Origin: an uncultured Gammaproteobacteria bacterium
Lineage (GTDB): Bacteria; Pseudomonadota; Gammaproteobacteria; Pseudomonadales; JAHEGP01
Direction: 5' to 3'
Assembly (NCBI GenBank): GCA_963751595.1
Contig: CAVVVC010000004.1
Coordinates: 73,262-137,261 of the forward strand
DNA length: 64,000 bases
In this document: positions 44,767-61,797 of the stretch, one piece after another
How positions within the stretch are numbered: the first letter of the stretch is position 1
Layout: every line of letters starts with the position of its first letter
The notes under the pieces: generated by a model
Seen by the model: only the letters and a program-made list of their open reading frames with translations
Databases searched by the model: none
Told to the model about the DNA's origin: nothing
Program-made: the position numbers and the translations under genes

Positions 44767-44782
44767 TGGCACGGCGCTTGCA
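44767..44782 (+). promoter_or_regulatory. sigma-54 promoter (-24/-12), operon A
   Basis: TGGCAC-GGCGC-TTGCA is a perfect consensus match. Confidence 0.8.
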
Positions 44783-44989
44783 GTTAAGCTCCATGTCAAG
44801 CAACTTGCTGCTCAGAATAAATTTCAATCATAAAGCGAGCGATCAATGATGCTTCTGTTGTGCGTTCAAATTATCCATCCAACCAGTAGGCATAGGCGTC
44901 TCTCCCCTTGGTGTGGCGATTGCAGTGTTGCTTTGACTGTTCGCTTTTGTCAGAGCTTGATTCAGGGGCGTTGTCGCTAGTCGGCTTCA

Positions 44990-45203
44990 GCAAGGTTTGC
45001 GATGCTGACTTCGATGGCAGACTCACCGAGACCTAGACGATTTCGGCCGAATCAGGAGCGTATTCGGTAGCCCGGTATCGGGTGGAATACCTTATGAAGA
45101 TGCAGATCATGCCGATTTAGATGATGGCGGCGCGGTTGACCTCGACGACCACTTTTCGATATGTCAGGGCTCAACTTGGGTGTACACGGTCCCTCAGGGT
45201 TGA
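44990..45203 (+). pseudogene. relic of the 3' end of a tagged paralog (degenerate copy of 47440..47661)
   Basis: Nucleotide blocks align with the end of gene 46417..47661: tgcgatgc, tcaggagcgYattcgg, ccttatg, gatcatgcMgattt, ggttRacctc, ttttcRatat, ggtccctcRgggttga. One frame reads DADHADLDDGGAVDLDDHFSI..., compared with DHADFTGDGVVNLSDFSIFR in the intact gene. It is broken by stops and indels. Confidence 0.65.
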
Positions 45204-45470
45204 GACCGAAAAAGCGGATACACGGTCCGCTGTGGCGATAGCCAACACAAGTTGTAAGGCGAGGAACACGGCGGTGAGGAAGCTGAATCAGGAACACACA
45301 GGGAGAACATGACGGCGGAGGTGTCACCAATCGAAGCTCGGGTATTGTTACCCGTGGCAAGCGCACCGTGAATAACAACTATCGTTTTCGCAAACGATAT
45401 AGAGACGACAAAGGTAACAGCACAAAACCCGGTCCAATTGAAATCTGACGTTAATGAGGTGGAAAATAAA

Positions 45471-46388
45471 ATGAAAATACCATTCCCTAACACTTGGTCT
45501 TGCAAGCGTTTCACTCTTTGCAAGCGACAGGCTGTCTCGCTGCTTGCTATTCCCCTGTTATGCCACAGTGTCTATGGCCAGGCGGCCGTGTTACTGCTGG
45601 AGGGTCCCATTAGCGCTTTGACTGATGATGGTGACGGCACGGGGAGCATTACCGTAATGGGGGTCACTGTCGACATTCCTGTCGGGACGCCCATTACCAC
45701 GCCGACAGCCTCGCTGGGTATCACGGCTGCCGCCAACCCTTCGGTTCTACCCGGTCGAACCCAGGCCGGCTTTGTTGGTGGTACGGCCATTATCGAGGGC
45801 AGCGGTGATCTTGCTGGCGGCTACAGCGCAGACTCGGTGTTTCTGGAGCCCGCCGAGAATATTCTGGGTGCCGCAACCACTTCACTGCCGGGTGAATCCC
45901 TGCAAGTAGCCGGTGTAGCACTGAGCCCCACCGGCGATGCGCGCATTCCGAATGGCCCCTTCACCAATGTTTTCGGCTTCGAAGTAGACCCCGACAGTGT
46001 GCCTCAGGGTTCTGGTGTTGTCTCTGAGGGCTATCTGTCCAATGATGGCAGCGGGGTGATGAATTACTTCGCGATTGAAGTCGATGGTGGCACTCTGGTC
46101 AATGCTGGCATCACCGAGGTCAGTATCTCCCGGGCGCAGTGCCAGGAAGATCCGGGGAACCCGATTGAGCTGCGAGTACAAGGAGCGGTCCATGATTTCG
46201 CCCCGAGCGATGTAAGCATTACCGATGGCGGGTCGCAGGTGCCCTTCGGCACCGTGACACCCGTCGCAGATGTTGCTCCCTTCGGCGTCTATTCCTTTGT
46301 TTTGAGGGGTGATGCCGCCTTTACAGTCTGTCCAACCAGTGTCTCGGCGACCTTTAATGGCGTAACCACTACCGCGGCGGTGAACTAA
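45471..46388 (+). CDS. secreted protein, unknown family A (untagged paralog)
   Basis: ORF 45438..46388. The ATG at 45471 follows the RBS gaggtgg. The N-terminus is hydrophobic. It aligns with 46417..47661 through LLLEGPISA..GSITVMGVTVDIP.GT.ITTPTA..PGRTQAGF.GGTAII...EPAENILGA...FGFEVDP...TEVS..RAQC..IELRV.G.VHD...FGTVT.VADV.PFGVY and ends (..TTTAAVN) where the neighbour's tag begins. Confidence 0.8.
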   Translation: MKIPFPNTWSCKRFTLCKRQAVSLLAIPLLCHSVYGQAAVLLLEGPISALTDDGDGTGSITVMGVTVDIPVGTPITTPTASLGITAAANPSVLPGRTQAGFVGGTAIIEGSGDLAGGYSADSVFLEPAENILGAATTSLPGESLQVAGVALSPTGDARIPNGPFTNVFGFEVDPDSVPQGSGVVSEGYLSNDGSGVMNYFAIEVDGGTLVNAGITEVSISRAQCQEDPGNPIELRVQGAVHDFAPSDVSITDGGSQVPFGTVTPVADVAPFGVYSFVLRGDAAFTVCPTSVSATFNGVTTTAAVN

Positions 46389-46416
46389 CAAGGGCATAGA
46401 CCCGGAGGTAATACGA

Positions 46417-47661
46417 ATGAAACACCTGACATCAGTTTTTCTGGGAAAAAATCGTCTGCAGCTGGCAGCGGGGATCACATTTATGGTGCTGAGTTTTCCA
46501 GCTAGCGCCGTGCCTCTGTTGTTGGAGGGGCCGATCAGCGCCATATCGGCAAACCCCGATGGCTCTGGCAGCATTACCGTACTGGGGGTTGTCGTCGACA
46601 TTCCGGCGGGAACCAGCATTACTACGCCGACTGCGACCCTTAGCATGAACCAGGCAGTCAACACCACCCCGCTACCCGGGCGTACACAGCCTGGGTTTAT
46701 TGGTGGCACAGCCATTATTGCAGGCACCTCGGTGGCGAGCGTCAATACCGCAGATAGCCTGTTTATGGAACCCGCTGAAAATATCCTCGGGGCCGATGTG
46801 ACTTCGACTCCCCCCGATGCCATTGCAATCGCCGGCGTCCCGATGGTGCCCATCTCTGATGTTCGCCTGCTCGCCGGCCCAGTGACCAATGACTTTGGCT
46901 TCGAGGTCGATCCTGCCACAGTGCCCAGCGGCGTTGACGCGGTCGCTGAGGGGTACTTTTCCAACGATGGCTCCGGTGCGTTCCAGTACTTCGCTCTAAC
47001 AGCCTCGGGAGGCGATATCCTCAACCCAGGCGTTACCGAAGTAAGCGTTATCCGTGCCCAGTGCAGGGCAGGGGCCACGCCCGCCGATCCCATTGAACTG
47101 CGAGTGCTGGGCGGCGTGCATGACCCCGCCGGTGGCACGGTCACCATCAGGGACTGGGGACCAACCACATTCGGTACGGTGACGGCCGTCGCTGATGTGC
47201 CGCCCTTTGGAGTCTACGACTTTCGAGTGCGAACCGGCTTCACTGTGTGCCCGTCCAGTGTAACCGTGGAGTTCAGCGGTGCATCCACAGTGGCCGCGGT
47301 AGCGGGCGGTTCGCCCGATGTTGATGGCGATGGCGTGCGCGATGACGTGGACAATTGCGTCGATGTGGCCAATGGGCCGCTTATCCCCGATGCCGGTGGT
47401 TTTATCCAACGCGATACCGACGCGGATGGTTTTGGCAATATCTGCGATGCGGATCTCAGCCAGGACGGTACAACAGTAGTGAACCTCAGTGACTACGCCT
47501 TGTTCAGGAGCGCATTCGGCGATACCGCACCGGGCACGGAGCCTTATGGGCCAGTGGATCATGCAGATTTTACTGGAGACGGAGTGGTTAACCTCTCCGA
47601 TTTTTCAATATTCCGGGCGCAATTTGGCGGTGAGCCTGGTCCCTCGGGGTTGAATCCGTAA
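46417..47661 (+). CDS. secreted protein, unknown family A, with C-terminal TSP3/dockerin-like module
   Basis: 414 aa. Signal peptide ...MVLSFPASA. It is a paralog of 45471..46388. The last 119 aa (47302..47658) are the shared module: DVDGDGVRDDVDNC...DTDADGFGNICDADLSQDG..VNLSDYALFRSAFG...ADFTGDGVVNLSDFSIFRAQFGGEPGPSGLNP. Confidence 0.85.
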   Translation: MKHLTSVFLGKNRLQLAAGITFMVLSFPASAVPLLLEGPISAISANPDGSGSITVLGVVVDIPAGTSITTPTATLSMNQAVNTTPLPGRTQPGFIGGTAIIAGTSVASVNTADSLFMEPAENILGADVTSTPPDAIAIAGVPMVPISDVRLLAGPVTNDFGFEVDPATVPSGVDAVAEGYFSNDGSGAFQYFALTASGGDILNPGVTEVSVIRAQCRAGATPADPIELRVLGGVHDPAGGTVTIRDWGPTTFGTVTAVADVPPFGVYDFRVRTGFTVCPSSVTVEFSGASTVAAVAGGSPDVDGDGVRDDVDNCVDVANGPLIPDAGGFIQRDTDADGFGNICDADLSQDGTTVVNLSDYALFRSAFGDTAPGTEPYGPVDHADFTGDGVVNLSDFSIFRAQFGGEPGPSGLNP

Positions 47662-48713: not shown

Positions 48714-48728
48714 GCTTTCGTTGGTTAC

Positions 48729-48848: not shown

Positions 48849-49244
48849 ACACTCACTTAATGTGCTGACAACCTACCCCGTCCAGTCCGTGACCATTCTA
48901 AATCTGTGCTTACCCAATCGATTCCGCGCAGCTGAAAAAGGTATCAGCGTCCAAAGAACCGCCGATGTGTTGCCAGCGGGCGGTGGTAAAACCGGTGTCA
49001 TTATTATTCACGGGGCGTGGCACAAGCAGCCTGACTGGCAGCGATATCATCCTTAAATTTCCGGCATTTTCGATCAGCAAAGCTGGAAATTACGATTCAC
49101 TACAATCTTGATGCCGAGGGTCTTATCCAAAAATAGCTATACAGAATCTATGGAATGTAACTCGCTATTTTATAGGTGCGAGTGGGGTGCTTGCCTCGGC
49201 AAACCTATCCAGCTTTCGAAGAACCACTGAGACATTTCGTTGAG

Positions 49245-49261
49245 TGTCGGTATTTTTTACA
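49245..49261. promoter_or_regulatory. inverted TGT-N11-ACA motif, module copy 2
   Basis: TGTCGGTATTTTTTACA, identical to 44674-44690. It lies 78-94 bp upstream of the sigma-54 element at 49339. Confidence 0.55.
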
Positions 49262-49338
49262 TATTACCGGGGGACAAGGTCGATGCGCTAGCAATGGCTT
49301 GCGCCAAGCTCTTGTTTTACTAACTTTTATGCCACCGA

Positions 49339-49354
49339 TGGCATGCCCCTTGCA
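49339..49354 (+). promoter_or_regulatory. sigma-54 promoter (-24/-12), operon B
   Basis: TGGCAT-GCCCC-TTGCA lies ~270 nt upstream of the ATG at 49625. Confidence 0.75.
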
Positions 49355-49624: not shown

Positions 49625-52207
49625 ATGAAATTGAAAACCAGGCAGGGTCTACCCGGCCCAACGACGTTATTACACTGCAGCTATACGACTTTGTTGGTCA
49701 GTCTGCTTGGATACTCGCTTCCAAGCGTCGCCCAGGCACCACCGCCATTTCCGGCGCTTGCCACCATCGCCGTTCCCCAGCCCCTCGACCTCAACCAGTT
49801 TGTTAGCAATCAGTTCGCGGCGGAGGCACTGGGTAAGGCGCTGTTCTGGGATATGCAACTGGGAAGCGACGGGGTGCAGGCCTGTGCCAGTTGCCACTTT
49901 CATGCCGGGGCAGACAATCGCACGGTGAACCAGATCAACCCGGGAACCCTGGGCAATGACGACCAGTTTGGTAACAATCGGCTCGGGTTGTTGGAACCGG
50001 CCCCGGGTGCGGTGCGGCTGAACCAGGAACTCACCCCGGCGCATTTCCCTCTGCACAAACTGAGAAACCAGCATGCCGTCGGCGAGCCGGGGAACAATGA
50101 GAGCAATGTGGTGGTTGACAACAACGACGTAGTGTCTTCCCAGGGCGTTGTGCTCATGGACTTCGTCGATATTCAAATCGGTAATCCGGTTGATATCGGC
50201 GCTGCGGTGGTTGATCCGGTTTTCAATGTCAACGGCACTAACGTCCGCCGGGTCGAGCCTCGTAATACCCCGACGGTCATCAACGCGGTATTCAATTTCG
50301 AGAATTTCCACGACGGTCGCGCCAATAATATTTTCAATGGCAATAACCCGTTTGGACCCGCTGACCCCAGGCCCCACCTGCTGAATAATGAAACCGGTAC
50401 GCTGGTTCCGGAGGAGCTGCGGCTGCGCCACTCCTCGCTGGCTTCCCAGGCAGTGGGACCACCGCTGAGCGATTTCGAAATGTCGTGGCGCGGTCGGACC
50501 TGGCCCAAGGTGGGCAAGAAAATGCTCAGCCTGGAGCCGCTGGCCCAGCAGGCGGTGTCTCCGGATGATAGTCGCCTGGGCAACGTGGCCGACACTTCCG
50601 ATGGAGCAGGATTAATCCCCACAGTCTCCTATGCTTCCTTGATCCAGTCAGCCTTCCCGGCAAAATACTGGAATAATACCACCGAGAAGGTGGTCTACGA
50701 TGCCAGTGGCGATCCCAGCTTTTTGCCTGGTCCCGCGGATCCTCTAAATACTAACGAATACACCCAAATGGAGGCCAACTTCTCCTTCTTCTTCGGTATC
50801 GCCCTGCAAATGTACCAGGCCACGCTCGTTGCCAGCGCTTCCAAGGTGGACAAGTTCATCGACGGCAGTGGCGCACTCACCAACGAAGAACAGCTGGGTA
50901 TGGATGTGTTCGCCAACGACGGCAACTGTCTGGCCTGCCATGGCGGCGGCACCTTGATGGATGTTGATACCGCACTTATCCAGGGCGTCGACCCGACCGG
51001 TAACCCCGTCCTTTTCGATCAGAATCCCTTGTTCGCCAATGAGTTCATGCAGATCGCCACGGGTTTTGGCCTCTATGATAACGGCTTTCACAATACCGGG
51101 GTGCGCCCCACGGGTAACCCGGCAGCGCAGGCATTTGATTATCTGGCTGTCAATGAAGACGTGGGGCGGGGCGGTATGACAGGTCTCGGAGGAGGCCTCA
51201 CTGAGGTTTCCCTGTCGAAGGGTATTCTGGGCTTGCAGAATACCGGCGGCCCTACACTGCAAATGCCCGGGCTGGCGCCATTGCCCGGCTATATGGCCGA
51301 ATGGGTGCCGCCACTGCCACTGGGTTTCTTACCCAATGACACCAACCCAATACCGGGGAGGGTCACCAACTTCGGTGCCTTCAAAACGCCTGGCTTGCGC
51401 AATATCGCGCTGCAGGGTCCCTACATGCATAACGGTGGCCTGTCGACCCTGCGCCAGGTGGTCGACTTCTACGTGCGCGGTGGCGACTTCCCTTTGACCA
51501 ATGCCCATAACTTCGATTCCGAGGGCATGACGGTACTGCCCTTGTTGCGCGACACCGGCGCGGTGCCCGGGCAGCCGACACCGGAACAACTGCGAGACGC
51601 ACTGGTGCAGTTTATGGTGGCCTTGACCGACTCCCGGGTGGCCAACGAGGAGGCACCCTTCGATCATCCGGAGTTGTTCGTACCCATTACCGGCACTGCG
51701 CCAGTTACCCCCGGTACCCGCGCGCTGCTGCTGGCAGACACTACCAATTTCCGCCAGGTCCCGGCTGTAGGCAGTGACGGTCGCAATGCGCTGTTCCTGC
51801 CCCCGCTAGGTACCTTTCTGGGTCTGAACCCCCGTAGCGCCAGCATTGTTGCCGATGCTGACCTCGATTTGATTGCCGACAACCTCGACAACTGCGAGGA
51901 CGATGCCAACCCCTTGCAGGAAGATGGCGAAGGGGATGGCGCGGGTGATGCCTGCGATAACTGTGTTGCCGTGGCCAATGCCGATCAGCGCGATACCGAT
52001 GGCGATGGCTTCGGCAATATCTGCGATGCGGACCTGAACAACGACGGCAACACCAACCTGACCGACTTTGGCCTTTTTCGAACTTCTTTCGGTGCGAGCT
52101 CGCCGTTAAGTCCGGCAGAAGAAAATGCGGATTTGAACGGCGATGGCACGGTGAACCTGAGCGACTTTGGCTTATTTCGGAGTATGTTCGGCCAACCACC
52201 GGGGTAA
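49625..52207 (+). CDS. di-haem cytochrome c peroxidase / MauG-family protein with C-terminal TSP3/dockerin-like module
   Basis: 860 aa with a signal peptide. Two CxxCH sites (ACASCHFHAG and NCLACHGGG). Family blocks LGKALFWDMQLGSDG and FKTPGLRNIALQGPYMHNGGLSTLRQVVDFY. The last 118 aa (51851..52204) are the shared module. Confidence 0.85.
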   Translation: MKLKTRQGLPGPTTLLHCSYTTLLVSLLGYSLPSVAQAPPPFPALATIAVPQPLDLNQFVSNQFAAEALGKALFWDMQLGSDGVQACASCHFHAGADNRTVNQINPGTLGNDDQFGNNRLGLLEPAPGAVRLNQELTPAHFPLHKLRNQHAVGEPGNNESNVVVDNNDVVSSQGVVLMDFVDIQIGNPVDIGAAVVDPVFNVNGTNVRRVEPRNTPTVINAVFNFENFHDGRANNIFNGNNPFGPADPRPHLLNNETGTLVPEELRLRHSSLASQAVGPPLSDFEMSWRGRTWPKVGKKMLSLEPLAQQAVSPDDSRLGNVADTSDGAGLIPTVSYASLIQSAFPAKYWNNTTEKVVYDASGDPSFLPGPADPLNTNEYTQMEANFSFFFGIALQMYQATLVASASKVDKFIDGSGALTNEEQLGMDVFANDGNCLACHGGGTLMDVDTALIQGVDPTGNPVLFDQNPLFANEFMQIATGFGLYDNGFHNTGVRPTGNPAAQAFDYLAVNEDVGRGGMTGLGGGLTEVSLSKGILGLQNTGGPTLQMPGLAPLPGYMAEWVPPLPLGFLPNDTNPIPGRVTNFGAFKTPGLRNIALQGPYMHNGGLSTLRQVVDFYVRGGDFPLTNAHNFDSEGMTVLPLLRDTGAVPGQPTPEQLRDALVQFMVALTDSRVANEEAPFDHPELFVPITGTAPVTPGTRALLLADTTNFRQVPAVGSDGRNALFLPPLGTFLGLNPRSASIVADADLDLIADNLDNCEDDANPLQEDGEGDGAGDACDNCVAVANADQRDTDGDGFGNICDADLNNDGNTNLTDFGLFRTSFGASSPLSPAEENADLNGDGTVNLSDFGLFRSMFGQPPG

Positions 52208-52248: not shown

Positions 52249-53484
52249 ATGAAACTTTCTGAAAACGCTGCGTCTCATTGTCCCCGAGCGGGGGGCGCAG
52301 CAAAGGCGGTGTTACTGGCTGTTCTTCTCGCTGCAGGCCCCGCCCAGGCGGTGCTGGTGGATTTCGGCCCCATTGATCCTTCGCACGGTTACCCTCTGTG
52401 GTACCGCGGCGCAGATGGTCTTGGCCTTGAATTGTGCCTCAGCGAGGCCGCCGCCAATGCTGCTATTCCGGGTAACCTGCTTTGTCTGCTGGATCCAGGT
52501 GAAAGGCAGGAGCCAGGCAATCCGTTCATATCCTACCCGGATAATTTCTGGCCGGAGGTGTTCTGGACCCGGGTAGATGCAGAAACGCCCACAGCTTTGG
52601 GTAGTGCATTGTTGGTAACGGCCTTGGAGGGGGCATTTTTCAATGAGGAACCGGTCGCCGGCGAAAATATCAGCTTTGCCCGCATTCGCGTTCGTATCGA
52701 CAACCCGGTCGCGGGCGCAGACCTTAAGGTCACCCATCCTTATGGGGTATTGACCTTTGAGAATCAACCTGCGGGCCTGCGGGCCATCAATTTTACCAGC
52801 GATGTCGGAATACAGGCCACACCACCGCCGCCCAGCGACTATACCGGAGCACTGGGTGGCAGCATCGGACCTTTCCTGCGCTGGACCGCTCCGGACTTCC
52901 CGGTACTGGATCAGAATGGTGTCGCTTACATTGGCGATCCCAATATTCCCCATACCGTGACGGGCAGCCCGCTGGGCACCAACTTTTTCAGAGTTGAAGG
53001 GCCAGTGGGGTTAGGCAGCCCCGGCGCGCCCAACCTCTGTGCCGACCCGCTATTGGGTGACGATCCGACGGATTTCACCGATTGTATCGAGACCGACCTG
53101 TTTGTGGGTTCCGGGAAAATTGCTGATTCCGACGCCGATGGCAGCCAGGACCATGCCGACAATTGTCCCGCTGTAGCTAACCCGGGACAGCAAGATAACG
53201 ACCGCGACGGGCTGGGCAATGCCTGCGATAACTGCATTGATGTAGCCAACGCCGACCAGCGCAATACTGGCGCCAACCCGGCTTTTGGCAACATGTGTGA
53301 TGCCGATCTCGACAATAACGGTGTGGTAAATTTGGCCGATTATAGCCTGTTCAGGTCGGAGTTTGGGTCAGTAGAGCCTTTGAGCGCGGCGCAAGAGAAC
53401 GCAGACTTCGACGGTGACGGCAATGTCAATCTCGGCGACTTCAACCGCCTGAGGACAATGTTCGGAAAGGCCCCGGGGCCATGA
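52249..53484 (+). CDS. secreted protein, unknown family B, tagged
   Basis: 411 aa with a signal peptide ..LLAAGPAQA. Family-B blocks: GYPLWYRGADGLGLELC, FARIRVRIDNPVAGADLKVTHPYGVLTF, IGPFLRWT, HTVTGSPLGTNFFRVEGP, DLFVGSGKI. The last 120 aa (53122..53481) are the shared module. Confidence 0.85.
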   Translation: MKLSENAASHCPRAGGAAKAVLLAVLLAAGPAQAVLVDFGPIDPSHGYPLWYRGADGLGLELCLSEAAANAAIPGNLLCLLDPGERQEPGNPFISYPDNFWPEVFWTRVDAETPTALGSALLVTALEGAFFNEEPVAGENISFARIRVRIDNPVAGADLKVTHPYGVLTFENQPAGLRAINFTSDVGIQATPPPPSDYTGALGGSIGPFLRWTAPDFPVLDQNGVAYIGDPNIPHTVTGSPLGTNFFRVEGPVGLGSPGAPNLCADPLLGDDPTDFTDCIETDLFVGSGKIADSDADGSQDHADNCPAVANPGQQDNDRDGLGNACDNCIDVANADQRNTGANPAFGNMCDADLDNNGVVNLADYSLFRSEFGSVEPLSAAQENADFDGDGNVNLGDFNRLRTMFGKAPGP

Positions 53485-53566: not shown

Positions 53567-54865
53567 ATGAAAACGTTCAGACTATGGCTAGTGTCAAGTA
53601 CGCTGCTGATTGGCTTGGCACAGACCGGCTTGGCTGCCTGCCCCGCCGATGGCGCCAAGCCCATGAATATAGGGCCCCACTCCGCGCAGACCACGTTTCC
53701 GCTCTGGGTGCAGGACTCCGAGGGGTTGGCGCTGGAGATTTGCCCGGGAACTGATGCGGTTAACTGCATCTCGGTACCACCCTTCACCGCGGCCGATTTC
53801 CCCGGCGACCCGGATGCCGCCGCAAAAGCCGCGTTATCGCAACAGATAGGGTTTGGCGACGAGGGTTTCTGGGCCTCTGCGGAAACCAGCATTGCTTTAC
53901 CCGGCGGTGGGCAGGCTTTGCTGGTGTCCGCGGTTGAAGCCGCCTTCCTGCCGGATTTTGCCCCCGGAAACCAGGTTCCTTTCACCCGACTGCGTCTTCG
54001 CATCGACATCCCGCAGGACGGCACCTATATCGTCACCCATCCCTGGGGCCAGATCACTTACGACATCGTCGGCGCCGCCAATAGCGGGGATATCAACGAC
54101 TCCTTCGATATTCCCTTCGCGGCGGACCAGGTTGGCTACCAGGGTCGCATCGGCCCCGTCCTGACTTGGGACACTTTTCCCGACGATCCACTCCTCAGTG
54201 GTGGCGCTTACATCGGTACATTGGCCGTAGATCGCCCGGTGAAGGGTAGCCCCTGCGGCACCAATTATTTTCGTATCGAGGGCCCGAACATTGGTGGGAA
54301 CGGCATCGATTTTATCCAAACCGACCTGTTTACAGTCACCGGTAAAGTGTACACCGGCGCGTTACCGACACCGCTGGAGGTCAGTCAGGTGAGCTACAGC
54401 CGCGCTGCCAGTGGCAGGGTCAATGTGTTCGCCGAGGCGCCCACTCAGGCAACCGTGAGTTTTAGTGGTGGAGGTGATCTGCCCGCCGGTCAACTGCCCA
54501 TGACAGGAGACGGCAGCGGTCGCTTTTTTGGCAGTGTGGCGCTGGCACCGGGGGCGACACTACCGGCCGAGGTGACCGTCACGGCAAGCAATGCTGCGGT
54601 AGGCGCCCAACCGGCCGAGACCGTCAACCCCCTGGTTGACCTGGTTACCATTTCCCGGGCGGAATTTGATTACGCGACCGGTGATCTGACCATTGAGGCC
54701 CACTCCAGCGACGAGGTCGCGCCACCCGTGCTGTCCGCCCTGGGGCAAAACCTTAGCAACGGCGTGTTGAGCACCAATTTGATCGTTGCCCCGCCGACGG
54801 TGACCGTAAGTTCGTCTGCGGGCGGTTCCGCCACCATCCCAGTGACAGTGATTCACACCCCATAA
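53567..54865 (+). CDS. secreted protein, unknown family B, untagged
   Basis: 432 aa with a signal peptide ..IGLAQTGLAA. Blocks: FPLWVQDSEGLALEIC, FTRLRLRIDIPQDGTYIVTHPWGQITY, IGPVLTWDT, VKGSPCGTNYFRIEGP, DLFTVTGKVY. It ends VTVSSSAGGSATIPVTVIHTP, at the position where the next gene (..VTVSSSAGGLATSLVAVVNSADEDGDG..) continues into the module. Confidence 0.85.
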   Translation: MKTFRLWLVSSTLLIGLAQTGLAACPADGAKPMNIGPHSAQTTFPLWVQDSEGLALEICPGTDAVNCISVPPFTAADFPGDPDAAAKAALSQQIGFGDEGFWASAETSIALPGGGQALLVSAVEAAFLPDFAPGNQVPFTRLRLRIDIPQDGTYIVTHPWGQITYDIVGAANSGDINDSFDIPFAADQVGYQGRIGPVLTWDTFPDDPLLSGGAYIGTLAVDRPVKGSPCGTNYFRIEGPNIGGNGIDFIQTDLFTVTGKVYTGALPTPLEVSQVSYSRAASGRVNVFAEAPTQATVSFSGGGDLPAGQLPMTGDGSGRFFGSVALAPGATLPAEVTVTASNAAVGAQPAETVNPLVDLVTISRAEFDYATGDLTIEAHSSDEVAPPVLSALGQNLSNGVLSTNLIVAPPTVTVSSSAGGSATIPVTVIHTP

Positions 54866-54886: not shown

Positions 54887-56614
54887 ATGAACAATAAAAT
54901 AGACAAAACCATGGTCCCGGTCTTGCTTGGTTTGCTCTTGAGCTCGACCACCAGCAATGCTGCGGATTTTTTTGCCGGCCCGCCGAACCCCAACAACGGT
55001 TTCTCGGAATACTTGACCGACGCCAATGGGCTTGAGTTAGAACTGTGCCTCGACCCCGCCTTCTGCCTTTTCGACCCTTTAGATCCGACCAACGATTTTT
55101 CAAATCAGATCGGCTTTGGTGCGGAAGGCTTCTGGTGGCTGGCCGAACCCGACACATCCGGCTTCCCGGGTACCATCGGGGCCACGCTGGTGCTTGCTGC
55201 CGAGGCCGCATTTGCCGCGGAAGTTCCCATTGATGGCGACCAGTTCCCCTTCACCCGGTTGCGCATTCGCCTGGATCTCCCGGTGCCAGGGATCTACCGC
55301 GTAACCGAGCCTTATGGGGTACACATTTACACCGTCACTGCCGTGGGTGCGGGCCTCGAGGTCAACGAAAGCTTCGACGTGCAGTTTAACCAGGGCACCA
55401 TCGATGACCAGGGCAATGTGACGGAAGCCGTCAACACCTATGGCGGCCCCTGGCTAACCTGGGATACCTACCCCAATGATGCTGCACTGGAAAACACCGG
55501 TGACGGGGTCGCGGATTTCATTGGTGACGGTGCCACCCCGCATGCGGTTATCGGTAGCCCCGCTGGCAACAACTTCTTCAAAATCGAGGCGTTTTCGGAC
55601 GCAGCCTTGACCGTCCCCTTGAACACCTTCGACCCAGGTGATGGCGATGACGATGGCAGTGCCAACAGTGTCACGGCCAGCCTGTTTACCGTGGTGGGTA
55701 AAGTCTACGACGGTCGACTCGCCACGGCAATGAGCGCCGAGCGCCTTACCTACTCGCGGGATGCCGGCGGTACCGGGCAGGTCGATGTATTCACCCGGGG
55801 CGCTGCGACCGCTAGCGTGACAGCTGCGGGCGGTCCCAATCTGGGCGGGCCTTTCAGCTTACTTGCGGATCAGGGCAACTTCTTTTTGAGCCAGCAGTTG
55901 ACGCCCAACGCGGTGGCATTGCCCTCTTCGGTAAACATTGAGGCAACCGATACGACCGCTGATCCGACCCGCTTGATTCAATCGCTGTCGGATTTCGTGA
56001 GCATTACGCGTGCGGAATATGACCTGGGAGCTTCGCCTCCGGCCCTGACCATCGAGGCTGCATCGAGCGATGCCCTGACTCCGCCGGTGCTCACGATCGT
56101 CGAGCTGGATCAGCCGCTGACTGCGGGCAGTGCAGTTATCACTGAAACGGCGGCGGGCGACCCGATCGCACCGCCTGCCTTGGTTACGGTGAGCTCCTCC
56201 GCCGGCGGACTTGCGACCAGCCTGGTGGCGGTGGTTAATTCAGCTGATGAGGACGGCGACGGCGTGTCTGATGACCTGGACAATTGCCCGCAGACTCCCA
56301 ACTCGGGGCAGGCGGATACCGACGCGGATAGTATTGGCAACGCCTGCGATAACTGCCTGCAAGTTGCCAACACCGACCAGCGTGATACCAATGATGATGG
56401 CTTCGGTAATGCCTGTGATGCAGACCTTGACAACAGCGGAGTCGTCAACTTGGCCGACTTTCAATTGTTTCGAGGCGTTTTTGGAGAGTCGCCATTGAGT
56501 CAACTTGGAGACGATGCCGATTTTGATGGCGACGGTAATGTTAATTTGGGAGATTACGGCAAGTTCAGAAGCGTGTTTGGGCAAAAACCCGGTCCATCAT
56601 GCTGTGCGCCTTAA
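54887..56614 (+). CDS. secreted protein, unknown family B, tagged
   Basis: 575 aa with a signal peptide ..LLSSTTSNAA. Blocks: FSEYLTDANGLELELC, FTRLRIRLDLPVPGIYRVTEPYGVHIY, GGPWLTWDT, HAVIGSPAGNNFFKIEAF, SLFTVVGKVY. The last 124 aa (56240..56611) are the shared module. Confidence 0.85.
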   Translation: MNNKIDKTMVPVLLGLLLSSTTSNAADFFAGPPNPNNGFSEYLTDANGLELELCLDPAFCLFDPLDPTNDFSNQIGFGAEGFWWLAEPDTSGFPGTIGATLVLAAEAAFAAEVPIDGDQFPFTRLRIRLDLPVPGIYRVTEPYGVHIYTVTAVGAGLEVNESFDVQFNQGTIDDQGNVTEAVNTYGGPWLTWDTYPNDAALENTGDGVADFIGDGATPHAVIGSPAGNNFFKIEAFSDAALTVPLNTFDPGDGDDDGSANSVTASLFTVVGKVYDGRLATAMSAERLTYSRDAGGTGQVDVFTRGAATASVTAAGGPNLGGPFSLLADQGNFFLSQQLTPNAVALPSSVNIEATDTTADPTRLIQSLSDFVSITRAEYDLGASPPALTIEAASSDALTPPVLTIVELDQPLTAGSAVITETAAGDPIAPPALVTVSSSAGGLATSLVAVVNSADEDGDGVSDDLDNCPQTPNSGQADTDADSIGNACDNCLQVANTDQRDTNDDGFGNACDADLDNSGVVNLADFQLFRGVFGESPLSQLGDDADFDGDGNVNLGDYGKFRSVFGQKPGPSCCAP

Positions 56615-56759: not shown

Positions 56760-59700
56760 ATGAAATCCAGAAAAACAAGATCGATAACTAAGTCGGTGCG
56801 AACCGCAAAAATGGCGGGCCTATTGGGCTTGGCTGGCCTTTCGCAGACGGCCACAGCCGCCGTCAACATACCCTCGGACATGCCCGCCAGTCCACTATTT
56901 GGCGCGCAGTCCTTTGCCCAGCAAATGCTGCGTTTCGAAGAGTTCGAGGTGCGCTTGATGCCGGCGCCCGGAGCCGACCAGACGAGAACATTCGATCCGC
57001 CCAATACCTGTGACGGCAGGCCGAACCCCTCCGCTATGGAGAGCCTGCTCGACGCGCCCCTGTGGCCAGATCCAACCATAGAGGCCAATACCAGTCTGCC
57101 CAACCCCTGGGCCGGGGCTATCGATAGCTGTATCCCGGGGGTCATTCCCAGCGGGGGCGCGATAGAGGGCAGGCCGCCGGGCGTGAGTTTCTCCCACCAG
57201 CGTTATGATGAGTTCCCCCCCGCGGTATACGCCCAGAGCATGATGGGCGCTGCCCGCGCCGGCACCGGTCGCCTGGATGATGCACAAAGCCACGGCTACG
57301 CAGTGGGTGAGTTCGCACCTGGCGGGCTATACCACAACACCACGGGCGCCTTCGGTGGTACCTCCAATGGCACTACCGCCGGCATTGAAATCAAATTTCA
57401 CCCCTCCATGCCGGCGCAGGATCCAAACCGGCTGTGGACCTTCGGCGATGGTACGCTGCCACCGAAACTACTGAGGGCCCGCTATGGCCAGCCGATTCTG
57501 TTTCGCCATTACAATGCCTTGCCCATCAACGTTGGCGCCAACGACGGCTTTGGCGAGCACACGATCACTACCCACCAGCACAATGGCCATAACCCCGGTG
57601 AGGTCGACGGCTTTGCCGGTGCCTACTTCTTCCCTGGACAGTTCTACGACTATCGCTGGCCCATGGTACTGGCGGGTTACGACAGCATCAACGCGGATGC
57701 GCGGGATCCCCGTGCCTCTACTCCGTGCTCAGCGGGCGAGGTGCTGATGATTGCCGACCCCAATACCGGCACAACCAAGCCCAAGACCTGCGACCCCGAA
57801 ACGCTAACGGTCAATATTCCGGGCGACTGGCGCGAGACCATGAGTACGCTCTGGTTCCATGACCACATGATCGACCGCACCTCGGAGAACGTCTACAAGG
57901 GCAACGCGGCGATGATGAACTACTACAGTGGCATCGATCGCGGCAAGGAAGGCTTTCGCTGCGATTATGCTGACACCCCCGAGCAGGATAATGTCAATCT
58001 GTGCTTCCCCAGCGGAACCGCCCTGGACTGGGGGAACCGCGATTACGATATCCAGTTGCTGATTGCCGCCAAGGCCTGGAATCAAAGTGGTCAGTTAGAC
58101 ATGGCGCTGGGCCTCAATGAAGATGGTTTCCTGGGAGACAGAATGACGGTTAACTGGCTGTACGAGCCGTATCTCGAGGTGCGTCCCCGCCGCTACCGCT
58201 TCCGGGTGCTCAACGGTGCCGTGGCGCGCTTCTTCAAGTTCGCTATTGTCGAGCAGGTGCAGGGTGGTGGTGGAACGTTCCAGGGCCCTCCGGGCTCTGG
58301 CGTGTCCTACAATCGGGTGCCGTACTTCATGGTTGCCAACGACGGCAACATCATGGAATATGCTGTTCCCTTTGGCCCGGGCAACCCCAATGGGGTCGAC
58401 CCGGATCTGCCGATTCAGTCAATTGCCGAAAGGTTCGATATTATCATTGACTTCGCCGGCAAGGCCGCGGGCACCAAGCTGTACATGGTAAACACCCTGG
58501 GGCATGACAATGGCCGTGGCCCCAAAGGTGTGGAGCCGCTCGCCAATATCCTCAATGGCACCTTCAGTCCAGAAATCCAACCCGGCTGCAATGACAACAA
58601 CTGCTGGTCAGACGACCCCACGCTGAGGCCCTTCCTGGAATTCCGGGTAGGCGCCTCTAACGGAGAGCCGGATTTGAGCATGGACCCCAACCTGTACGTC
58701 GCGACGGAGTTTGGTGGAGGGGGTAAAACCATGATTCCCCTGGTGCAATTTACCCAGGCGGAGCTCGATGGGGCCATCCATCGTACCTTCGACTTCACCC
58801 GGGGAGGTAATCCTGGAGAAGCAACCGATGGTCGCCAGACGCCTTGGGGTATCGTTACCGACGACGAGCCAGAAACTGGTGCTTGTTTAGATGATCCAAT
58901 CGCGAATCCGGGCACATGCTCCCGCACCGCCGACGTGAACCGGGTGTCGGCGGCCCCGGAAACCATCGGTGGCGGCGTCGAGATCTGGCACATCAGAAAT
59001 GGTGGCGGCGGCTGGGGCCACCCGGTGCATATCCACTTTGAAGAGGGCCAGTACCTGAACCGCGACGGAGCCATCCCGCCCCCCTGGGAGGTCGGCGCGC
59101 GCAAGGATATGTATCGCGTATCGGGTCTTGACGATCCCGGTAGCAGCTCGAATATCTCAGTTGCAATTCGCTTTCGCGAGTTTGCCGGTACCTACGTGGA
59201 GCACTGCCACAATACTACCCACGAAGACAAAGCCATGCTGCTGCGCTGGGATAACGAAATGCCGGGGCAAACGGTGCGCATACCGACACCGTTGCCGACC
59301 TGGGACGGCGTGGGCTATATCAGTGCCCTCAACCCACAGCCGTTTACCGACGCTACAGCAGTGGTGGAGTTACCAACCATCAAGACCGGTAACGTGGCAA
59401 TGGCGGCGGCTTCTGACCTGGACGGCGATGGCATTCTGGATAGCGTCGACAACTGTGTCATAGTCCCGAATCCGGGGCAGGAGGATGTGCTGGATATAGG
59501 TGGACCTGATGGCGTTGGCGATGCCTGCGATAATTGCCAACTGCTTGCCAACCCGGACCAGCTTGATACCAACGCCGACGGCTTTGGCAACGCCTGCGAT
59601 GCGGATCTCAACGGCGACGGCCAGGTGAACTTGGCTGACTTTGCTGAGTTCAGGGCGTCGTTCGGCACGAGCGGGAAAGATGCAGACCTCAATGGCGATG

Positions 59701-59780
59701 GCTTTGTGAATCTCAGTGACTTTTCATTGTTCAGAGCCAGGTTTGGAAGCGTTCCGGGACCGTCGGCAGGCAACCCGTAG
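56760..59780 (+). CDS. large multicopper oxidase with C-terminal TSP3/dockerin-like module
   Basis: 1006 aa with a Sec-type signal peptide. The four Cu-ligand motifs are HQHNGHN, LWFHDHM, HPVHIHFEEG and HCHNTTHEDKAMLL (CotA/bilirubin-oxidase-like HCHxxxHED..M). The last 123 aa (59409..59777) are the shared module. Confidence 0.9.
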   Translation: MKSRKTRSITKSVRTAKMAGLLGLAGLSQTATAAVNIPSDMPASPLFGAQSFAQQMLRFEEFEVRLMPAPGADQTRTFDPPNTCDGRPNPSAMESLLDAPLWPDPTIEANTSLPNPWAGAIDSCIPGVIPSGGAIEGRPPGVSFSHQRYDEFPPAVYAQSMMGAARAGTGRLDDAQSHGYAVGEFAPGGLYHNTTGAFGGTSNGTTAGIEIKFHPSMPAQDPNRLWTFGDGTLPPKLLRARYGQPILFRHYNALPINVGANDGFGEHTITTHQHNGHNPGEVDGFAGAYFFPGQFYDYRWPMVLAGYDSINADARDPRASTPCSAGEVLMIADPNTGTTKPKTCDPETLTVNIPGDWRETMSTLWFHDHMIDRTSENVYKGNAAMMNYYSGIDRGKEGFRCDYADTPEQDNVNLCFPSGTALDWGNRDYDIQLLIAAKAWNQSGQLDMALGLNEDGFLGDRMTVNWLYEPYLEVRPRRYRFRVLNGAVARFFKFAIVEQVQGGGGTFQGPPGSGVSYNRVPYFMVANDGNIMEYAVPFGPGNPNGVDPDLPIQSIAERFDIIIDFAGKAAGTKLYMVNTLGHDNGRGPKGVEPLANILNGTFSPEIQPGCNDNNCWSDDPTLRPFLEFRVGASNGEPDLSMDPNLYVATEFGGGGKTMIPLVQFTQAELDGAIHRTFDFTRGGNPGEATDGRQTPWGIVTDDEPETGACLDDPIANPGTCSRTADVNRVSAAPETIGGGVEIWHIRNGGGGWGHPVHIHFEEGQYLNRDGAIPPPWEVGARKDMYRVSGLDDPGSSSNISVAIRFREFAGTYVEHCHNTTHEDKAMLLRWDNEMPGQTVRIPTPLPTWDGVGYISALNPQPFTDATAVVELPTIKTGNVAMAAASDLDGDGILDSVDNCVIVPNPGQEDVLDIGGPDGVGDACDNCQLLANPDQLDTNADGFGNACDADLNGDGQVNLADFAEFRASFGTSGKDADLNGDGFVNLSDFSLFRARFGSVPGPSAGNP

Positions 59781-59907
59781 CGCCCCGCGGACCTGATGCA
59801 CTGGCGCGGTTTCATAGCCTGAAGCCGCGCCAATGTTAGTGGTGCTAGCTATTGGCTGTAAACCAGGTTGCTGGAACTAACCCGCTAAATGAAATTCAAG
59901 TAAGGGG

Positions 59908-60999
59908 TTGTATATGCATTGTTCTCGAAATACCGCCGGATTACCTCGAGCTGCTGCTGTCATCCTCCTGTTGATCGCTGCGATGTATCTCGCAACGGTC
60001 AATTTGGCCTGGGCGAAACCGGAGTTCCCCAACGTGGTGCTGATCAACCAGGACGGAGAGCCCCTGCGCTTTTACGATGACGTCATCAAGGGAAAGGTGG
60101 TGTCGATCAACTTCATGTTTACCAGTTGTGGCGATGCTTGCCCCCTGGAGACAGCCAAGTTGCGCACGGTGCAAAAGATGCTGGGGGAGCACTCCGGCAA
60201 AGACGTGTACATGTACTCCATCACTGTGGATCCCGATCGCGATACACCCGAGGTGCTCAAGGCCTATATGCAGAAATTCGACGTTGCCCCTGGCTGGCAG
60301 TTTCTCACGGGAGACAAGGAAGACATCGACCGGGTTCGGGACGCACTGGGCATGTTGAGTGAAAACGAGCAGGAGCTTAGCGACCATGTCATCAATTTTG
60401 TGCTGGGTAATGAGGAGACGGGGCAATGGTTTCGACGCACACCCTTCGATATACCCGAGGCACTGGTTTCGGTGTTACTTGGTCGCCTCCAGCAGCACCG
60501 CCTGACGGCTTCTTCTGCCGCCGTGTTCCCGAGTTACGCCGAGAGCAAGCCTCTGCCGGCTGCCAGCCCGGGTGAGGACCTCTACAACACGCGCTGCACC
60601 GCTTGCCACAGCATCGGCGGAGGCGACAAATTGGGGCCCGATCTGTTGGGTGTTGTTGCCCGGCGTGATCACCAGTGGCTGGTTCGCTGGTTGCAGGAAC
60701 CCGATGTCATGCTGGAGGAAAAAGATACCCTGGCGATGGAGCTATTCGCCCAGTACGGCAATGTGCCAATGCCTAATGTGCAACTCACTGAGCAACAGGC
60801 GCTTGACCTGATCCAGTACATGCAGACCGAAACCGAGAGGGTGGCCGCAGCCAACCGTGCCCGGGTTCCGGCAGACAGCCTTGATGGCATTGTAACGTCG
60901 CCCCGGGAGCAACCCGGCGCTCCACCAAGCTCCACCGCCGACGACGTAGTGCCGGATCAGGCGCGCCTGGAAACTTCACCGGCGGGAGACGCTCAATAG
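59908..60999 (+). CDS. SCO1/SenC-type copper chaperone fused to a c-type cytochrome domain
   Basis: 363 aa (TTG at 59908 or ATG at 59914) with an N-terminal anchor or signal. The thioredoxin-like domain has the CxxxC motif FMFTSCGDACPLE and a downstream His (SDHVINF). The C-terminal domain has CTACHSIGGGDKLGPDL and a distal Met (NVPMPNV). Confidence 0.8.
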   Translation: MYMHCSRNTAGLPRAAAVILLLIAAMYLATVNLAWAKPEFPNVVLINQDGEPLRFYDDVIKGKVVSINFMFTSCGDACPLETAKLRTVQKMLGEHSGKDVYMYSITVDPDRDTPEVLKAYMQKFDVAPGWQFLTGDKEDIDRVRDALGMLSENEQELSDHVINFVLGNEETGQWFRRTPFDIPEALVSVLLGRLQQHRLTASSAAVFPSYAESKPLPAASPGEDLYNTRCTACHSIGGGDKLGPDLLGVVARRDHQWLVRWLQEPDVMLEEKDTLAMELFAQYGNVPMPNVQLTEQQALDLIQYMQTETERVAAANRARVPADSLDGIVTSPREQPGAPPSSTADDVVPDQARLETSPAGDAQ

Positions 61000-61020
61000 G
61001 TCAGTACGGAGGGCAAAACC

Positions 61021-61797
61021 GTGCCAACGAATATCAAGAACAGGAAACTTGCTGCCGCGTTTTTTACCGTGTTGTGTCTTTTGCCCCGCACTTTGGCCCA
61101 GGCGGCCAATATCGACCAGCTTGACGATTTTGAGGACAATACCCTGCAGGGCTGGGCGATGGGAGTCCCTACAGTTACAGAGAACTTCATGAGCATCGTC
61201 GCCGATGGCGGGCCTGATGGCGTCGGCGATTCCTATCTTGCGGTACGGTCTGACAGCTCGATTATCCGAGGAGGTGGTCAGCGGTTGACATTTTTTAACC
61301 GACAGCAGTGGGCCGGAAATTACACCGCCGCGGGCATTACTGCGATCGCCATGGATCTGAAGAATTTCAGCACCGACCAGGTTCTTAATATGCGCCTCGC
61401 CGTCAATGGCGGCTTCGGCAGCGCCTCAACGGGTGGTGTAACCGGTGGCGTTTTTATCAGCAACTCCATCAGCAGATTGGAGGTTGGTAGCGGCTGGACC
61501 CGGGCGGTGTTTTCGTTATTGCCCGACGACCTGATAGCCATCAGCGGCGGCATTGGCGGCAACACCACCGGCAACGATGTGGCGGCAACCCTGGCAAACG
61601 TTCAGGAGCTGCGCCTGCTGAATAGCGAGACAGATAGCTGGAGCGGTCTTACCGTTACCGCCAGCGTTGGTGTCGACAACGTCCATGTAGTGCCATTGCC
61701 GCCGGCTTTTGCTATGTTCGGTTCGGCCTTGATGGCGCTCGTGGCGTTCCTGCTGGGGCGGAAAAACTGGTTTTTTGGAAGGAACAGCGGTGATTAG
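61021..61797 (+). CDS. PEP-CTERM sorting-domain protein
   Basis: 258 aa. The GTG start lies 21 nt after the SCO gene, behind the RBS ggaggg. Signal peptide ..LPRTLAQA. C-terminus VHVVPLPPAFAMFGSALMALVAFLLGRKN.... Confidence 0.75.
   Translation: MPTNIKNRKLAAAFFTVLCLLPRTLAQAANIDQLDDFEDNTLQGWAMGVPTVTENFMSIVADGGPDGVGDSYLAVRSDSSIIRGGGQRLTFFNRQQWAGNYTAAGITAIAMDLKNFSTDQVLNMRLAVNGGFGSASTGGVTGGVFISNSISRLEVGSGWTRAVFSLLPDDLIAISGGIGGNTTGNDVAATLANVQELRLLNSETDSWSGLTVTASVGVDNVHVVPLPPAFAMFGSALMALVAFLLGRKNWFFGRNSGD

Follow-up and report, generated by a model that had tools for sequence, protein, structure and literature searches.

A gene cluster around an McoA-type multicopper oxidase in an uncultured gammaproteobacterium, with a MauG-type di-haem enzyme and a protein family that adjoins manganese-oxidase genes

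A stretch of 64,000 nucleotides (nt) of contig CAVVVC010000004.1 from an uncultured gammaproteobacterium, hereafter referred to as the window, carries a unit of ten consecutive plus-strand genes that ends at position 62261 and surrounds the gene of a large multicopper oxidase (MCO). With moderate confidence, this locus is read here as encoding an extracellular, probably surface- or matrix-bound, metal-oxidising apparatus built around an McoA-type MCO, with Mn(II) as the likeliest substrate. Judged from sequence, the core of the locus is of a described kind, namely the McoA manganese-oxidase system of Pseudomonas putida GB-1 and its relatives; an MCO-based manganese-oxidase locus with SCO1 and sigma-54 control is familiar, the central oxidase is unsurprising, and the composition found here has no description in the papers searched. 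Bacterial Mn(II) oxidation drives the environmental cycling of manganese, trace metals and carbon, and most of what is known of its machinery comes from a handful of MCOs and peroxidases, the accessory factors, export and oxide localisation being poorly understood. A MauG-type enzyme, the two secreted protein families termed A and B below, a shared C-terminal tail and an in-operon PEP-CTERM protein are undescribed for such a system in the literature searched; queries on mnxG with cadherin, and on MauG with MCO and manganese oxidation, gave nothing relevant except a proteomic study of Pseudomonas resinovorans.

A first-pass annotation of the window had recognised a set of eight genes, and the open reading frame (ORF) listing contains every one of them at the same coordinates; the unit is larger, because a PEP-CTERM-like protein of 258 amino acids (aa) and a 139-aa protein belong to it as well (Table 1). 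An N-terminal signal or anchor sequence is predicted on all products of the cluster. The intergenic gaps of the main operon span 21-145 nt, with 127 nt between the MCO and SCO1 genes, and 1963 nt separate A2 from the di-haem gene.

The oxidase core and its relation to known manganese-oxidase operons

The MCO contains the four copper motifs that had been noticed at first pass (HQHNG at residue 272, HDH at 367, HPVHIH at 754 and HCHNTTHEDKAM at 815, by direct motif check) and matches Pfam Cu-oxidase_2 with 31.6 bits. The downstream product is, as annotated, a fusion of SCO1 and cytochrome c, with matches to SCO1-SenC (PF02630, 88.5 bits) and Cytochrom_C and with the motifs CGDAC at residue 74 (CxxxC) and CTACH at 230 (CxxCH). 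The homolog search for the MCO family returned more than 4,700 matches. The window MCO is 48% identical over 879 aa (746 bits) to a 942-aa MCO of P. mucoides (locus L057), which is likewise followed by a SCO1-cytochrome c gene whose product is 43% identical to that of the window, and the L057 pair is flanked by two histidine kinases. This order matches the mnxS1-mcoA-SCO1-mnxS2 layout reported for the Mn-oxidising Pseudomonas strains MS-1 and DSV-1, in which the mcoA-SCO1 pair lies between mnxS1 and mnxS2, and mcoA together with SCO1 has been identified as the conserved core of the mcoA operon (PMC11409713). Another homolog, P0076, which is 53% identical to the window MCO, has been named "manganese oxidase" by the Joint Genome Institute (JGI), and P0072, a JGI metagenome protein of 1310 aa, is a natural single-chain fusion of MCO, SCO1 and cytochrome c, which supports a direct functional link between the MCO and SCO1 genes of the window. 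The window MCO does not match the curated MnxG model NF041487. On the basis of the homology of the MCO and SCO1 proteins, the L057 layout and the sigma-54 promoters described below, the core is assigned to the McoA-type systems, so that the earlier statement that no described system could be named does not hold for this part of the locus (PMC11409713, PMC11930936).

The cluster resembles the mcoA operon in its large MCO (~940-1000 aa) with four copper motifs and 48% identity across the core, in the directly downstream SCO1-cytochrome c gene (43%), in a sigma-54 promoter with an upstream element, and in that family B genes adjoin mcoA in several Pseudomonas genomes. It differs in that the window MCO bears a TSP3/dockerin-like tail, that the set of ten adds a MauG-type enzyme, family A, three family B paralogs and the PEP-CTERM and 139-aa proteins, that MnxS and MnxR are not encoded nearby, and that the host is an uncultured gammaproteobacterium. 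With the mnxG operon of Pseudomonas, which comprises genes for MnxG, a lactonase-type beta-propeller, two SCO1 proteins, a cytochrome c-binding protein and SurA, the window shares sigma-54 control, SCO1 chaperones and a cytochrome of the c type. Genes of family B also lie beside mnxG: in Pseudomonas loci L052, L055, L061 and L078 they are divergent and upstream of it, and in several further phyla they adjoin it in other orientations. By contrast, the window MCO is 1006 aa long as compared with ~1970 aa in MnxG, and the window has no beta-propeller or SurA gene. In a close relative (L001), SurA and lactonase-type beta-propeller genes are located 8 kb from the cluster (21002-23090, minus strand), and this organism may also carry an MnxG-type oxidase next door.

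The Mof operon of Leptothrix discophora encodes the MCO MofA, the FKBP MofB and the cytochrome c MofC, and a copper chaperone is present in its Rubrivivax homolog (PMC8218464). Here, the likeness is one of gene content, in that an MCO that is a candidate extracellular manganese oxidase is combined with a c-type cytochrome and a copper chaperone, whereas an FKBP gene is not in the window cluster. A family B pair is found in a Leptothrix metagenome-assembled genome (MAG; L028), with no MCO within 10 kb of it.

Secreted partner families and the di-haem enzyme

The three family B proteins share an N-terminal domain (N-domain) of ~250 aa at 35-48% identity, and the two family A proteins are 55% identical to each other; their description as two sets of paralogs was therefore correct. 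A relationship between families A and B was rejected by hhalign. The AlphaFold2 (AF2) model of B2, with a predicted local distance difference test score (pLDDT) of 88.4, consists of an N-terminal beta-sandwich followed by two immunoglobulin (Ig)-like domains, and only generic Ig matches appear among its top 50 in Foldseek. Neither B2 nor family A (searched with A1) has a Pfam, NCBIfam or PDB relative in sequence and profile searches, in keeping with the label "unknown" that both families had received at first pass. In the PDB, the best E-values of the two families were 0.25 and 0.81, and no MbnP, MopE or CorA chain was among the profile matches at E <= 10; the NCBIfam MbnP model matches neither family.

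An exhaustive hidden Markov model (HMM) search for family B returned 2,073 cluster representatives (50% identity clusters) at E <= 1e-10. The N-domain is also repeated, in up to three or four copies, within giant proteins, for example P0333 (3066 aa) and P0386 (2998 aa), and thus behaves as a mobile extracellular domain that is not confined to stand-alone proteins. An alignment of 144 N-domain sequences shows no variation at C59, C67, E99, E124, R141 and R143 and almost none at D50, D181 and Y154; H158 is present in 129 sequences, positions 47 and 102 are W or Y, and no Met is conserved. C59 and C67 form a disulfide pair. This conservation pattern suggests that the N-domain has a defined binding or active site that is rich in carboxylates.

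The genomic surroundings of family B were surveyed with one genome per species (253 relatives), and 79 loci were examined for neighbours. In 31 of these loci a large MCO lies within 10 kb of family B, being McoA-type in 18 cases and MnxG-type in 13. Large MCOs of these types are estimated to occur about once or twice per genome, and the association of family B with manganese oxidases is therefore far above chance. In Pseudomonas sp. 10-1B (L061), a B pair (463 aa, and 779 aa with Big_9/cadherin) is divergent from the gene of a 1969-aa protein that scores 3775 bits against the MnxG equivalog NF041487 (cut-off 3100); behind this gene comes that of the lactonase-type beta-propeller known from the mnxG operon. 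B pairs lie beside mcoA-SCO1 in Pseudomonas loci L036, L038, L054, L057 and L073, and B genes are located next to MnxG-type operons in a Nitrospirota MAG (L005, by protein look-up), in MAGs labelled Nitrospirae, Acidobacteriota, Anaerolineae and Gemmatimonadales, in isolates and MAGs of Actinomycetota and in a Thiodiazotropha symbiont. A link of family B to manganese-oxidase loci is apparently unreported in the literature searched. In P. resinovorans MOB-513, the products of a tandem gene pair named "Glycoprotein gp2" (PRES513_05617/05618) were up together with the manganese oxidases in a hyper-oxidiser and down in non-oxidising algR and pilC mutants (PMC13631088); the type strain of this species has a B pair (L070, 9869-13522), to which the gp2 pair may correspond. 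In Pseudomonas, tandem B pairs are also followed by a gene for a curlin-repeat (Curlin_rpt) protein (L057, 12775-14223; L070, 14058-15440), a secretin gene is found near the L057 pair, and the type II secretion genes GspL and GspM are found near the B genes of L004.

Family A is a small family with 53 matches. Its AF2 model (pLDDT 90.9) is all-beta, and not one Trp, His, Met or Cys is invariant across the family. Its close members accompany the cluster: in L008 they are inside the operon, and several come from contigs equal in length to those of MCO matches. The distant homologs in Rhodocyclaceae and Geminicoccus have no MCO link.

The assignment of the di-haem enzyme as CCP/MauG-type was borne out by its match to CCP_MauG (PF03150, 69.8 bits, E = 5e-19) and by two haem-binding motifs, CASCH at residue 87 and CLACH at 435. 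In HMMER alignments, its Tyr616, which is invariant in nine orthologs, pairs with Tyr294 of MauG, with the corresponding Tyr of MbnH and with Met258 of the Nitrosomonas cytochrome c peroxidase (NeCcP). His-Tyr rather than His-Met ligation of the E-haem sets MauG-type enzymes apart from canonical peroxidases; with H2O2 they form a bis-Fe(IV) state and oxidise protein substrates, and they are reportedly poor peroxidases (PMC11892367). By this aligned His-Tyr signature, the window enzyme is MauG-type. Its closest structure is MbnH (6E1C, E = 1.5e-18), followed by canonical cytochrome c peroxidases and MauG, and its scores against the models of MbnH (TIGR04039, 95.6 bits, cut-off 362.85) and MauG (TIGR03791, 72.2 bits, cut-off 443.85) are far below the cut-offs. 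The enzyme resembles the MauG/MbnH/BthA group in its two c-type haems, its Tyr at the Tyr294 position and its top matches among structures and models (MbnH in both cases), as well as in the adjoining genes for secreted beta-rich proteins; the protein substrates associated with this group are preMADH and MbnP, together with MopE and CorA. The window enzyme differs in that its core is about twice as long (735 as compared with 350-390 aa), with large insertions and an additional tail, and in that its neighbours have no similarity to MbnP, MopE or CorA. Known MauG-type enzymes act on a protein encoded nearby, as in the MbnH-MbnP, MopE and CorA cases (PMC11951088). It is plausible that the di-haem enzyme of the window matures a neighbouring protein.

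Shared tail, promoters and conservation of the cluster

As had been observed at first pass, five of the proteins end in a common Asp-rich module of ~120 aa: tblastn with the MCO tail found exactly five copies in the window, all confined to this cluster (A2, the di-haem enzyme, B1, B3 and the MCO; 48-59% identity). In the module, two or three TSP3 repeats precede a pair of dockerin-like EF-hand loops. The tails are matched by Pfam TSP_3 and/or Dockerin_1, the latter above its gathering threshold in the di-haem enzyme (27.4), B1 (27.9) and the MCO (31.1); in A2 and B3, Dockerin_1 stays under this threshold. A single C-terminal calcium-binding, dockerin-like module common to several secreted enzymes of one locus is reminiscent of the cellulosome; the differences are that the module of the window is preceded by TSP3 repeats, that no cohesin was detected in the window, and that the host is a Gram-negative bacterium with PEP-CTERM sorting, in which the binding of a partner is a prediction. 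Neither a cohesin nor any other domain was found in the three PEP-CTERM proteins and the 139-aa protein. The gene at 61021-61797, annotated as PEP-CTERM, encodes a VPLP-type motif (VPLPPAFAMFGSALMALVAFLLGRK) that is canonical in its orthologs, which end in VPLPPALALFGSGLVxLxxRRRK; the window protein itself has no PEP-CTERM HMM match at E <= 1. Orthologs of this 258-aa protein (46-81% identity) follow SCO in L001, L002, L008-L013, L015 and L024, and orthologs of the 139-aa protein (38-71% identity) occupy the same position as in the window in L001, L002, L008, L009, L011-L013 and L024.

A strict sigma-54 pattern (TGGCAY-N5-TTGCW) was searched in the whole window and in 100 shuffles of it, yielding three matches as against 0.17 expected, a number that none of the 100 shuffles reached. 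Two of these sites, P1 and P2, stand before the A1-A2 operon and the main operon. The first-pass annotation had described both as perfect sigma-54 elements behind an identical 17-mer; the sites are real, and the repeated element is in fact 21 nt long and is part of a duplicated region of ~450 bp over which P1 and P2 can be aligned at 76% identity on both sides of the promoter. The 21-nt element, which contains TGT-N11-ACA, is present in two exact copies, where zero are expected by chance, and is a candidate activator site (upstream activating sequence, UAS) or a site of the integration host factor (IHF) region; the orthologous promoter of L008 retains it, likewise at a spacing of 94 nt. A palindrome that is conserved between the P1 and P2 regions is a candidate distal activator site, its function being suggested by its position and conservation. 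The P1 leader (44792-45470; ~680 nt) is unusually long, and over its initial ~200 nt it is a paralog of the P2 leader; an Rfam scan of the whole window found no RNA family. A scan for sigma-70 promoters and terminators gave a signal no higher than in shuffles.

A site orthologous to P2 is located upstream of the di-haem gene in L008, L010 and L012, and sigma-54 sites stand before the di-haem, B and MCO genes in L008, L010, L012 and L015. In L010 and L015, a palindrome close to CCCTCCCAAAATGGGAGGG stands twice before every sigma-54 promoter of the cluster (for example, L015 4720-5035, 9500-9815 and 13435-13750), and it is probably a dedicated activator site that differs from the 21-mer of the window. 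Judged from sequence, sigma-54 control of the cluster is thus conserved, while the activator site is variable. In P. putida GB-1, PmnxG and PmcoA resemble each other in their IHF/sigma-54 promoter structure and are induced by manganese (PMC11930936), and manganese oxidation requires rpoN and the sigma-54 activator MnxR (PMC11409713, PMC11930936).

The order of di-haem enzyme, secreted proteins without family, MCO, SCO1-cytochrome c, PEP-CTERM and 139-aa protein recurs in many uncultured Gammaproteobacteria, so that the neighbourhood, proposed for comparison at first pass, is conserved in other genomes. L001 (MCO 74% identical) has the di-haem gene, two genes without family, the MCO and SCO-cytochrome c genes and genes for ~250-aa and ~160-aa proteins; L002 (64%) has the same order; and in L003, from Methylomonas sp. 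LL1 (56%), these components are divided between two divergent operons. The closest species, L008, has the genes for the di-haem enzyme, B2, B3, A1, A2, MCO, SCO, PEP-CTERM and 139-aa proteins, in this order, behind a single sigma-54 promoter, which implies that a local rearrangement of one functional unit gave the window its separate A1-A2 operon and the duplicated promoter in front of it. The content of the middle slot depends on the genome, the occupants being family B, family A or two unrelated families represented by the 647-aa and 757-aa genes of L001; the possibility that these two genes are divergent members of family B was rejected by hhalign. Relatives carry the cluster in other contexts, namely beside rpoA and rplQ in L002 and beside a PAS kinase and a LuxR-type regulator in L003. 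The cluster or parts of it are present in methanotrophs, including Methylomonas LL1 (L003), Methylobacter (L021-L023) and Methylomicrobium (L018). When metagenomes were scanned with the di-haem enzyme as the centre, at least 497 relatives were found, and those with at least 57% identity mostly keep MCO, B, 647 or 757 neighbours.

Table 1. Features of the cluster and its surroundings in the window
Feature	Position	Strand	Remarks
PrsT	27964-30603	-	NCBIfam TIGR02917, 300 bits
PrsR	30645..32015	-	NCBIfam TIGR02915, 680 bits; sole sigma-54 enhancer-binding protein encoded in the window; candidate activator
PrsK	32021-34063	-	NCBIfam TIGR02916, 627 bits
Two VPLPA/PEP-CTERM genes	41814-42392, 42609-43259	-	between proB and the cluster
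Third sigma-54 site	43429..43444	-	TGGCACGGTACTTGCT; ~170 nt upstream of VPLPA/PEP-CTERM gene 42609-43259(-)
Palindrome, P1 side	44562..44571	+	AATAGCTATT; ~230 nt upstream of P1; conserved block in P1/P2 alignment
21-nt element, first copy	44673..44693	+	GTGTCGGTATTTTTTACATAT; 94 nt upstream of the P1 -24 element
Sigma-54 promoter P1	44767..44782	+	TGGCACGGCGCTTGCA; before A1-A2 operon
A1	45471..46388	+	family A, secreted all-beta protein, 305 aa, without tail
A2	46417..47661	+	family A paralog, 414 aa, with TSP3/dockerin-like tail
Palindrome, P2 side	49142-49150		AATAGCTAT; counterpart of the P1-side palindrome
21-nt element, second exact copy	49244..49264	+	95 nt upstream of P2
Sigma-54 promoter P2	49339..49354	+	TGGCATGCCCCTTGCA; before main operon
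MauG-type di-haem enzyme	49625..52207	+	860 aa; 735-aa core, then tail
B1	52249..53484	+	411 aa; family B N-domain, then tail directly
B2	53567..54865	+	432 aa; family B N-domain and two Ig-like domains, without tail
B3	54887..56614	+	575 aa; family B N-domain, two Ig-like domains and tail
McoA-type MCO	56760..59780	+	1006 aa; four copper motifs and tail
SCO1/SenC-cytochrome c	59908..60999	+	363 aa; SCO1/SenC (CGDAC) fused to c-type cytochrome (CTACH)
258-aa secreted protein	61021..61797	+	VPLP/PEP-CTERM-like C-terminal signal; candidate surface anchor
139-aa secreted protein	61842..62261	+	no named family; last gene of the unit, beyond the range of the first-pass annotation

The PrsT, PrsR and PrsK genes form a complete set of XrtA/PEP-CTERM regulator, kinase and tetratricopeptide-repeat lipoprotein at 27964-34063 on the minus strand, upstream of which lie exopolysaccharide (EPS) genes for a glycosyltransferase, an acyltransferase and an O-antigen-ligase-like protein. 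The third sigma-54 site may belong to the same regulon as P1 and P2, and it lacks the 21-nt element of both; the gene behind it shows weak similarity to the flocculation protein PepA. A spacer of ~1.4 kb (47662-49100) separates the A operon from the duplicated promoter region; it contains no long ORF and shows no similarity to any of the relatives' loci compared, and its small ORFs match no family. The EPS region further contains two nearly identical transposase-like ORFs, at 3538-4962 (minus strand, 474 aa) and at 8324-9448 (minus strand, 374 aa, with a diverging C-terminus), which suggest recent insertion sequence activity, and two paralogous secreted proteins with weak similarity to the polysaccharide-lyase family PF14099, encoded on the plus strand at 2393-3268 and 5234-6082.

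Proposed mechanism and alternative readings

A feasible model is that Mn(II) is converted to Mn(III/IV) by the MCO, an activity that genetic evidence assigns to McoA in P. putida GB-1, and that the SCO1-cytochrome c protein, to judge from its families, supplies the oxidase, outside the cytoplasm, with copper and perhaps also with electrons. The di-haem enzyme may use H2O2 for the oxidative maturation of a partner, be it a family B protein, a family A protein or the MCO; alternatively, it may remove H2O2 and thereby protect Mn(III/IV) from being reduced again. The A and B proteins, both all-beta, would be non-catalytic partners that, for example, bind metal or template the oxide; family B has an invariant carboxylate/Arg cluster together with a near-invariant Tyr and a mostly present His (D50, E99, E124, D181, Y154, H158, R141 and R143). 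The calcium-binding TSP3/dockerin-like tail might gather the five proteins at the cell surface or in the EPS, with the PEP-CTERM protein of the operon as a possible anchor, and a sigma-54 activator would turn the whole set on together, PrsR being the only such activator encoded in the window. Sequence and comparison establish the composition, the motifs, the homology to an MCO in the mcoA layout, the conserved synteny, the promoter sites and the genomic association of family B with both types of manganese oxidase; what the substrate is, what the di-haem enzyme, the A and B proteins and the tail do, and which activator is at work are all inferred. It is also tempting to speculate, albeit as a rather doubtful extension, that family B is a phylum-spanning partner of MnxG- and McoA-type Mn(II) oxidases, that in this locus either it or the oxidase is matured by the giant MauG-type enzyme, and that the set is assembled through its tails on a PEP-CTERM scaffold as an "oxidosome" that nucleates manganese oxide at the surface. 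Among the roles named in the first-pass annotation, which included the oxidation of Mn(II), Fe(II) or phenolic compounds and the cross-linking of the neighbouring matrix, the oxidation of Mn(II) is the best supported, whereas the link to the EPS locus is circumstantial.

Several observations weigh against a manganese-oxidising apparatus of this kind. The McoA orthology of the Pseudomonas comparator rests on synteny and not on direct alignment with McoA of GB-1, and to our knowledge the activity of the McoA clade is known solely from the genetics of P. putida GB-1. Moreover, MCOs are promiscuous in their substrates, which makes the substrate specificity of the MCO insecure at 48% identity. No MnxS or MnxR homolog is encoded in the 64-kb window, where the sole sigma-54 activator is PrsR. 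Among the top 50 Foldseek matches and the PDB profiles, nothing recognisable as a catalytic or metal-binding fold was found for families A and B, and many Pseudomonas B pairs have no MCO within 10 kb, so that family B is not strictly tied to manganese oxidases. Relatives of the di-haem enzyme at ~40% identity often stand alone in unrelated contexts, several of them still lying beside B, 757-like or MCO genes, and this weakens the case for a specific maturation of family B by the di-haem enzyme. Finally, no cohesin-like partner for the tail was detected in the neighbouring PEP-CTERM proteins of the window.

An alternative reading, considered unlikely here, is that the locus serves the acquisition or handling of copper in the manner of MopE, CorA-CorB or MbnP-MbnH, in which case the MauG-type enzyme would install a kynurenine-type copper site in a secreted beta-sandwich partner (a B or A protein), this partner would capture extracellular copper, SCO1 would relay it, and the MCO would be a cuprous oxidase or a sink. 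Such a role would be consistent with MbnH being both the closest structure and the closest model of the di-haem enzyme, with the MauG-type Tyr signature of an enzyme class that acts on proteins encoded nearby (PMC11951088), with the presence of the cluster or its parts in methanotrophs and with the copper chaperone. However, no match of either family to MbnP, MopE or CorA was obtained in the PDB at E <= 10, and none in NCBIfam; no Trp, His, Met or Cys is invariant in family A, and the strongest genomic partner of family B is mnxG or mcoA, not the mbn or cor genes. In addition, MbnP depends on the conserved Trp of a WxW motif, whereas the conserved residues of family B are mostly Asp, Glu, Arg and Tyr, with W or Y at positions 47 and 102. 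The conserved columns of neither family contain a WxW Trp with His/Met ligands.

It is similarly improbable that the products act on organic matter, either by cross-linking or remodelling the EPS/PEP-CTERM matrix of the cell itself or by oxidising phenolic or humic compounds, under the control of PrsK and PrsR. Laccase activity is common among MCOs, and the cluster adjoins an XrtA-type EPS locus with PrsK, PrsR, PrsT and two VPLPA/PEP-CTERM genes, one of them behind the third sigma-54 promoter; the operon also encodes a conserved PEP-CTERM-like protein, and PrsR is the only sigma-54 activator in the window. These points are countered by the other genomic contexts of the cluster in relatives (L002 beside rpoA/rplQ, and L003), by the lack of the 21-nt element in the promoter of the PEP-CTERM gene, and by the nearest characterised relatives of the MCO, which are manganese oxidases, family B tracking mnxG and mcoA in organisms without any PEP-CTERM link.

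An equally low probability is assigned to the idea that the variable middle genes, those of families A and B included, encode non-catalytic adhesin or matrix "cargo" that is merely co-regulated and co-located with the oxidase, and that the di-haem enzyme is a general extracellular peroxide scavenger: the exchange of B, A, 647-aa and 757-aa families in one slot, the Ig-like, cadherin or Big_9 domains of B proteins, their curlin-repeat neighbours in Pseudomonas and the solitary distant di-haem homologs would agree with it, but the invariant E99, E124, R141 and R143 and the C59/C67 disulfide in 144 B sequences suggest a specific binding or active site, the association of family B with two types of manganese oxidase in several phyla is far above chance, and MauG-type enzymes are reportedly poor peroxidases (PMC11892367).

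Should the substrate of the MCO be something other than manganese, the cluster would still represent a conserved extracellular oxidoreductase module, as yet without a name, that metagenomes from soil and sediment commonly contain. The locus may offer a new substrate context for the protein-oxidising haem enzymes of the MauG type, and its shared tail may reflect a principle by which extracellular redox enzymes are assembled in Gram-negative bacteria. Family B is a concrete candidate for an accessory family of bacterial manganese oxidation, as it is found beside MnxG- and McoA-type MCO genes in Proteobacteria, Nitrospirota, Actinomycetota and others, and it is testable in tractable Mn-oxidising Pseudomonas, in which a B pair is located divergently upstream of mnxG or beside mcoA.

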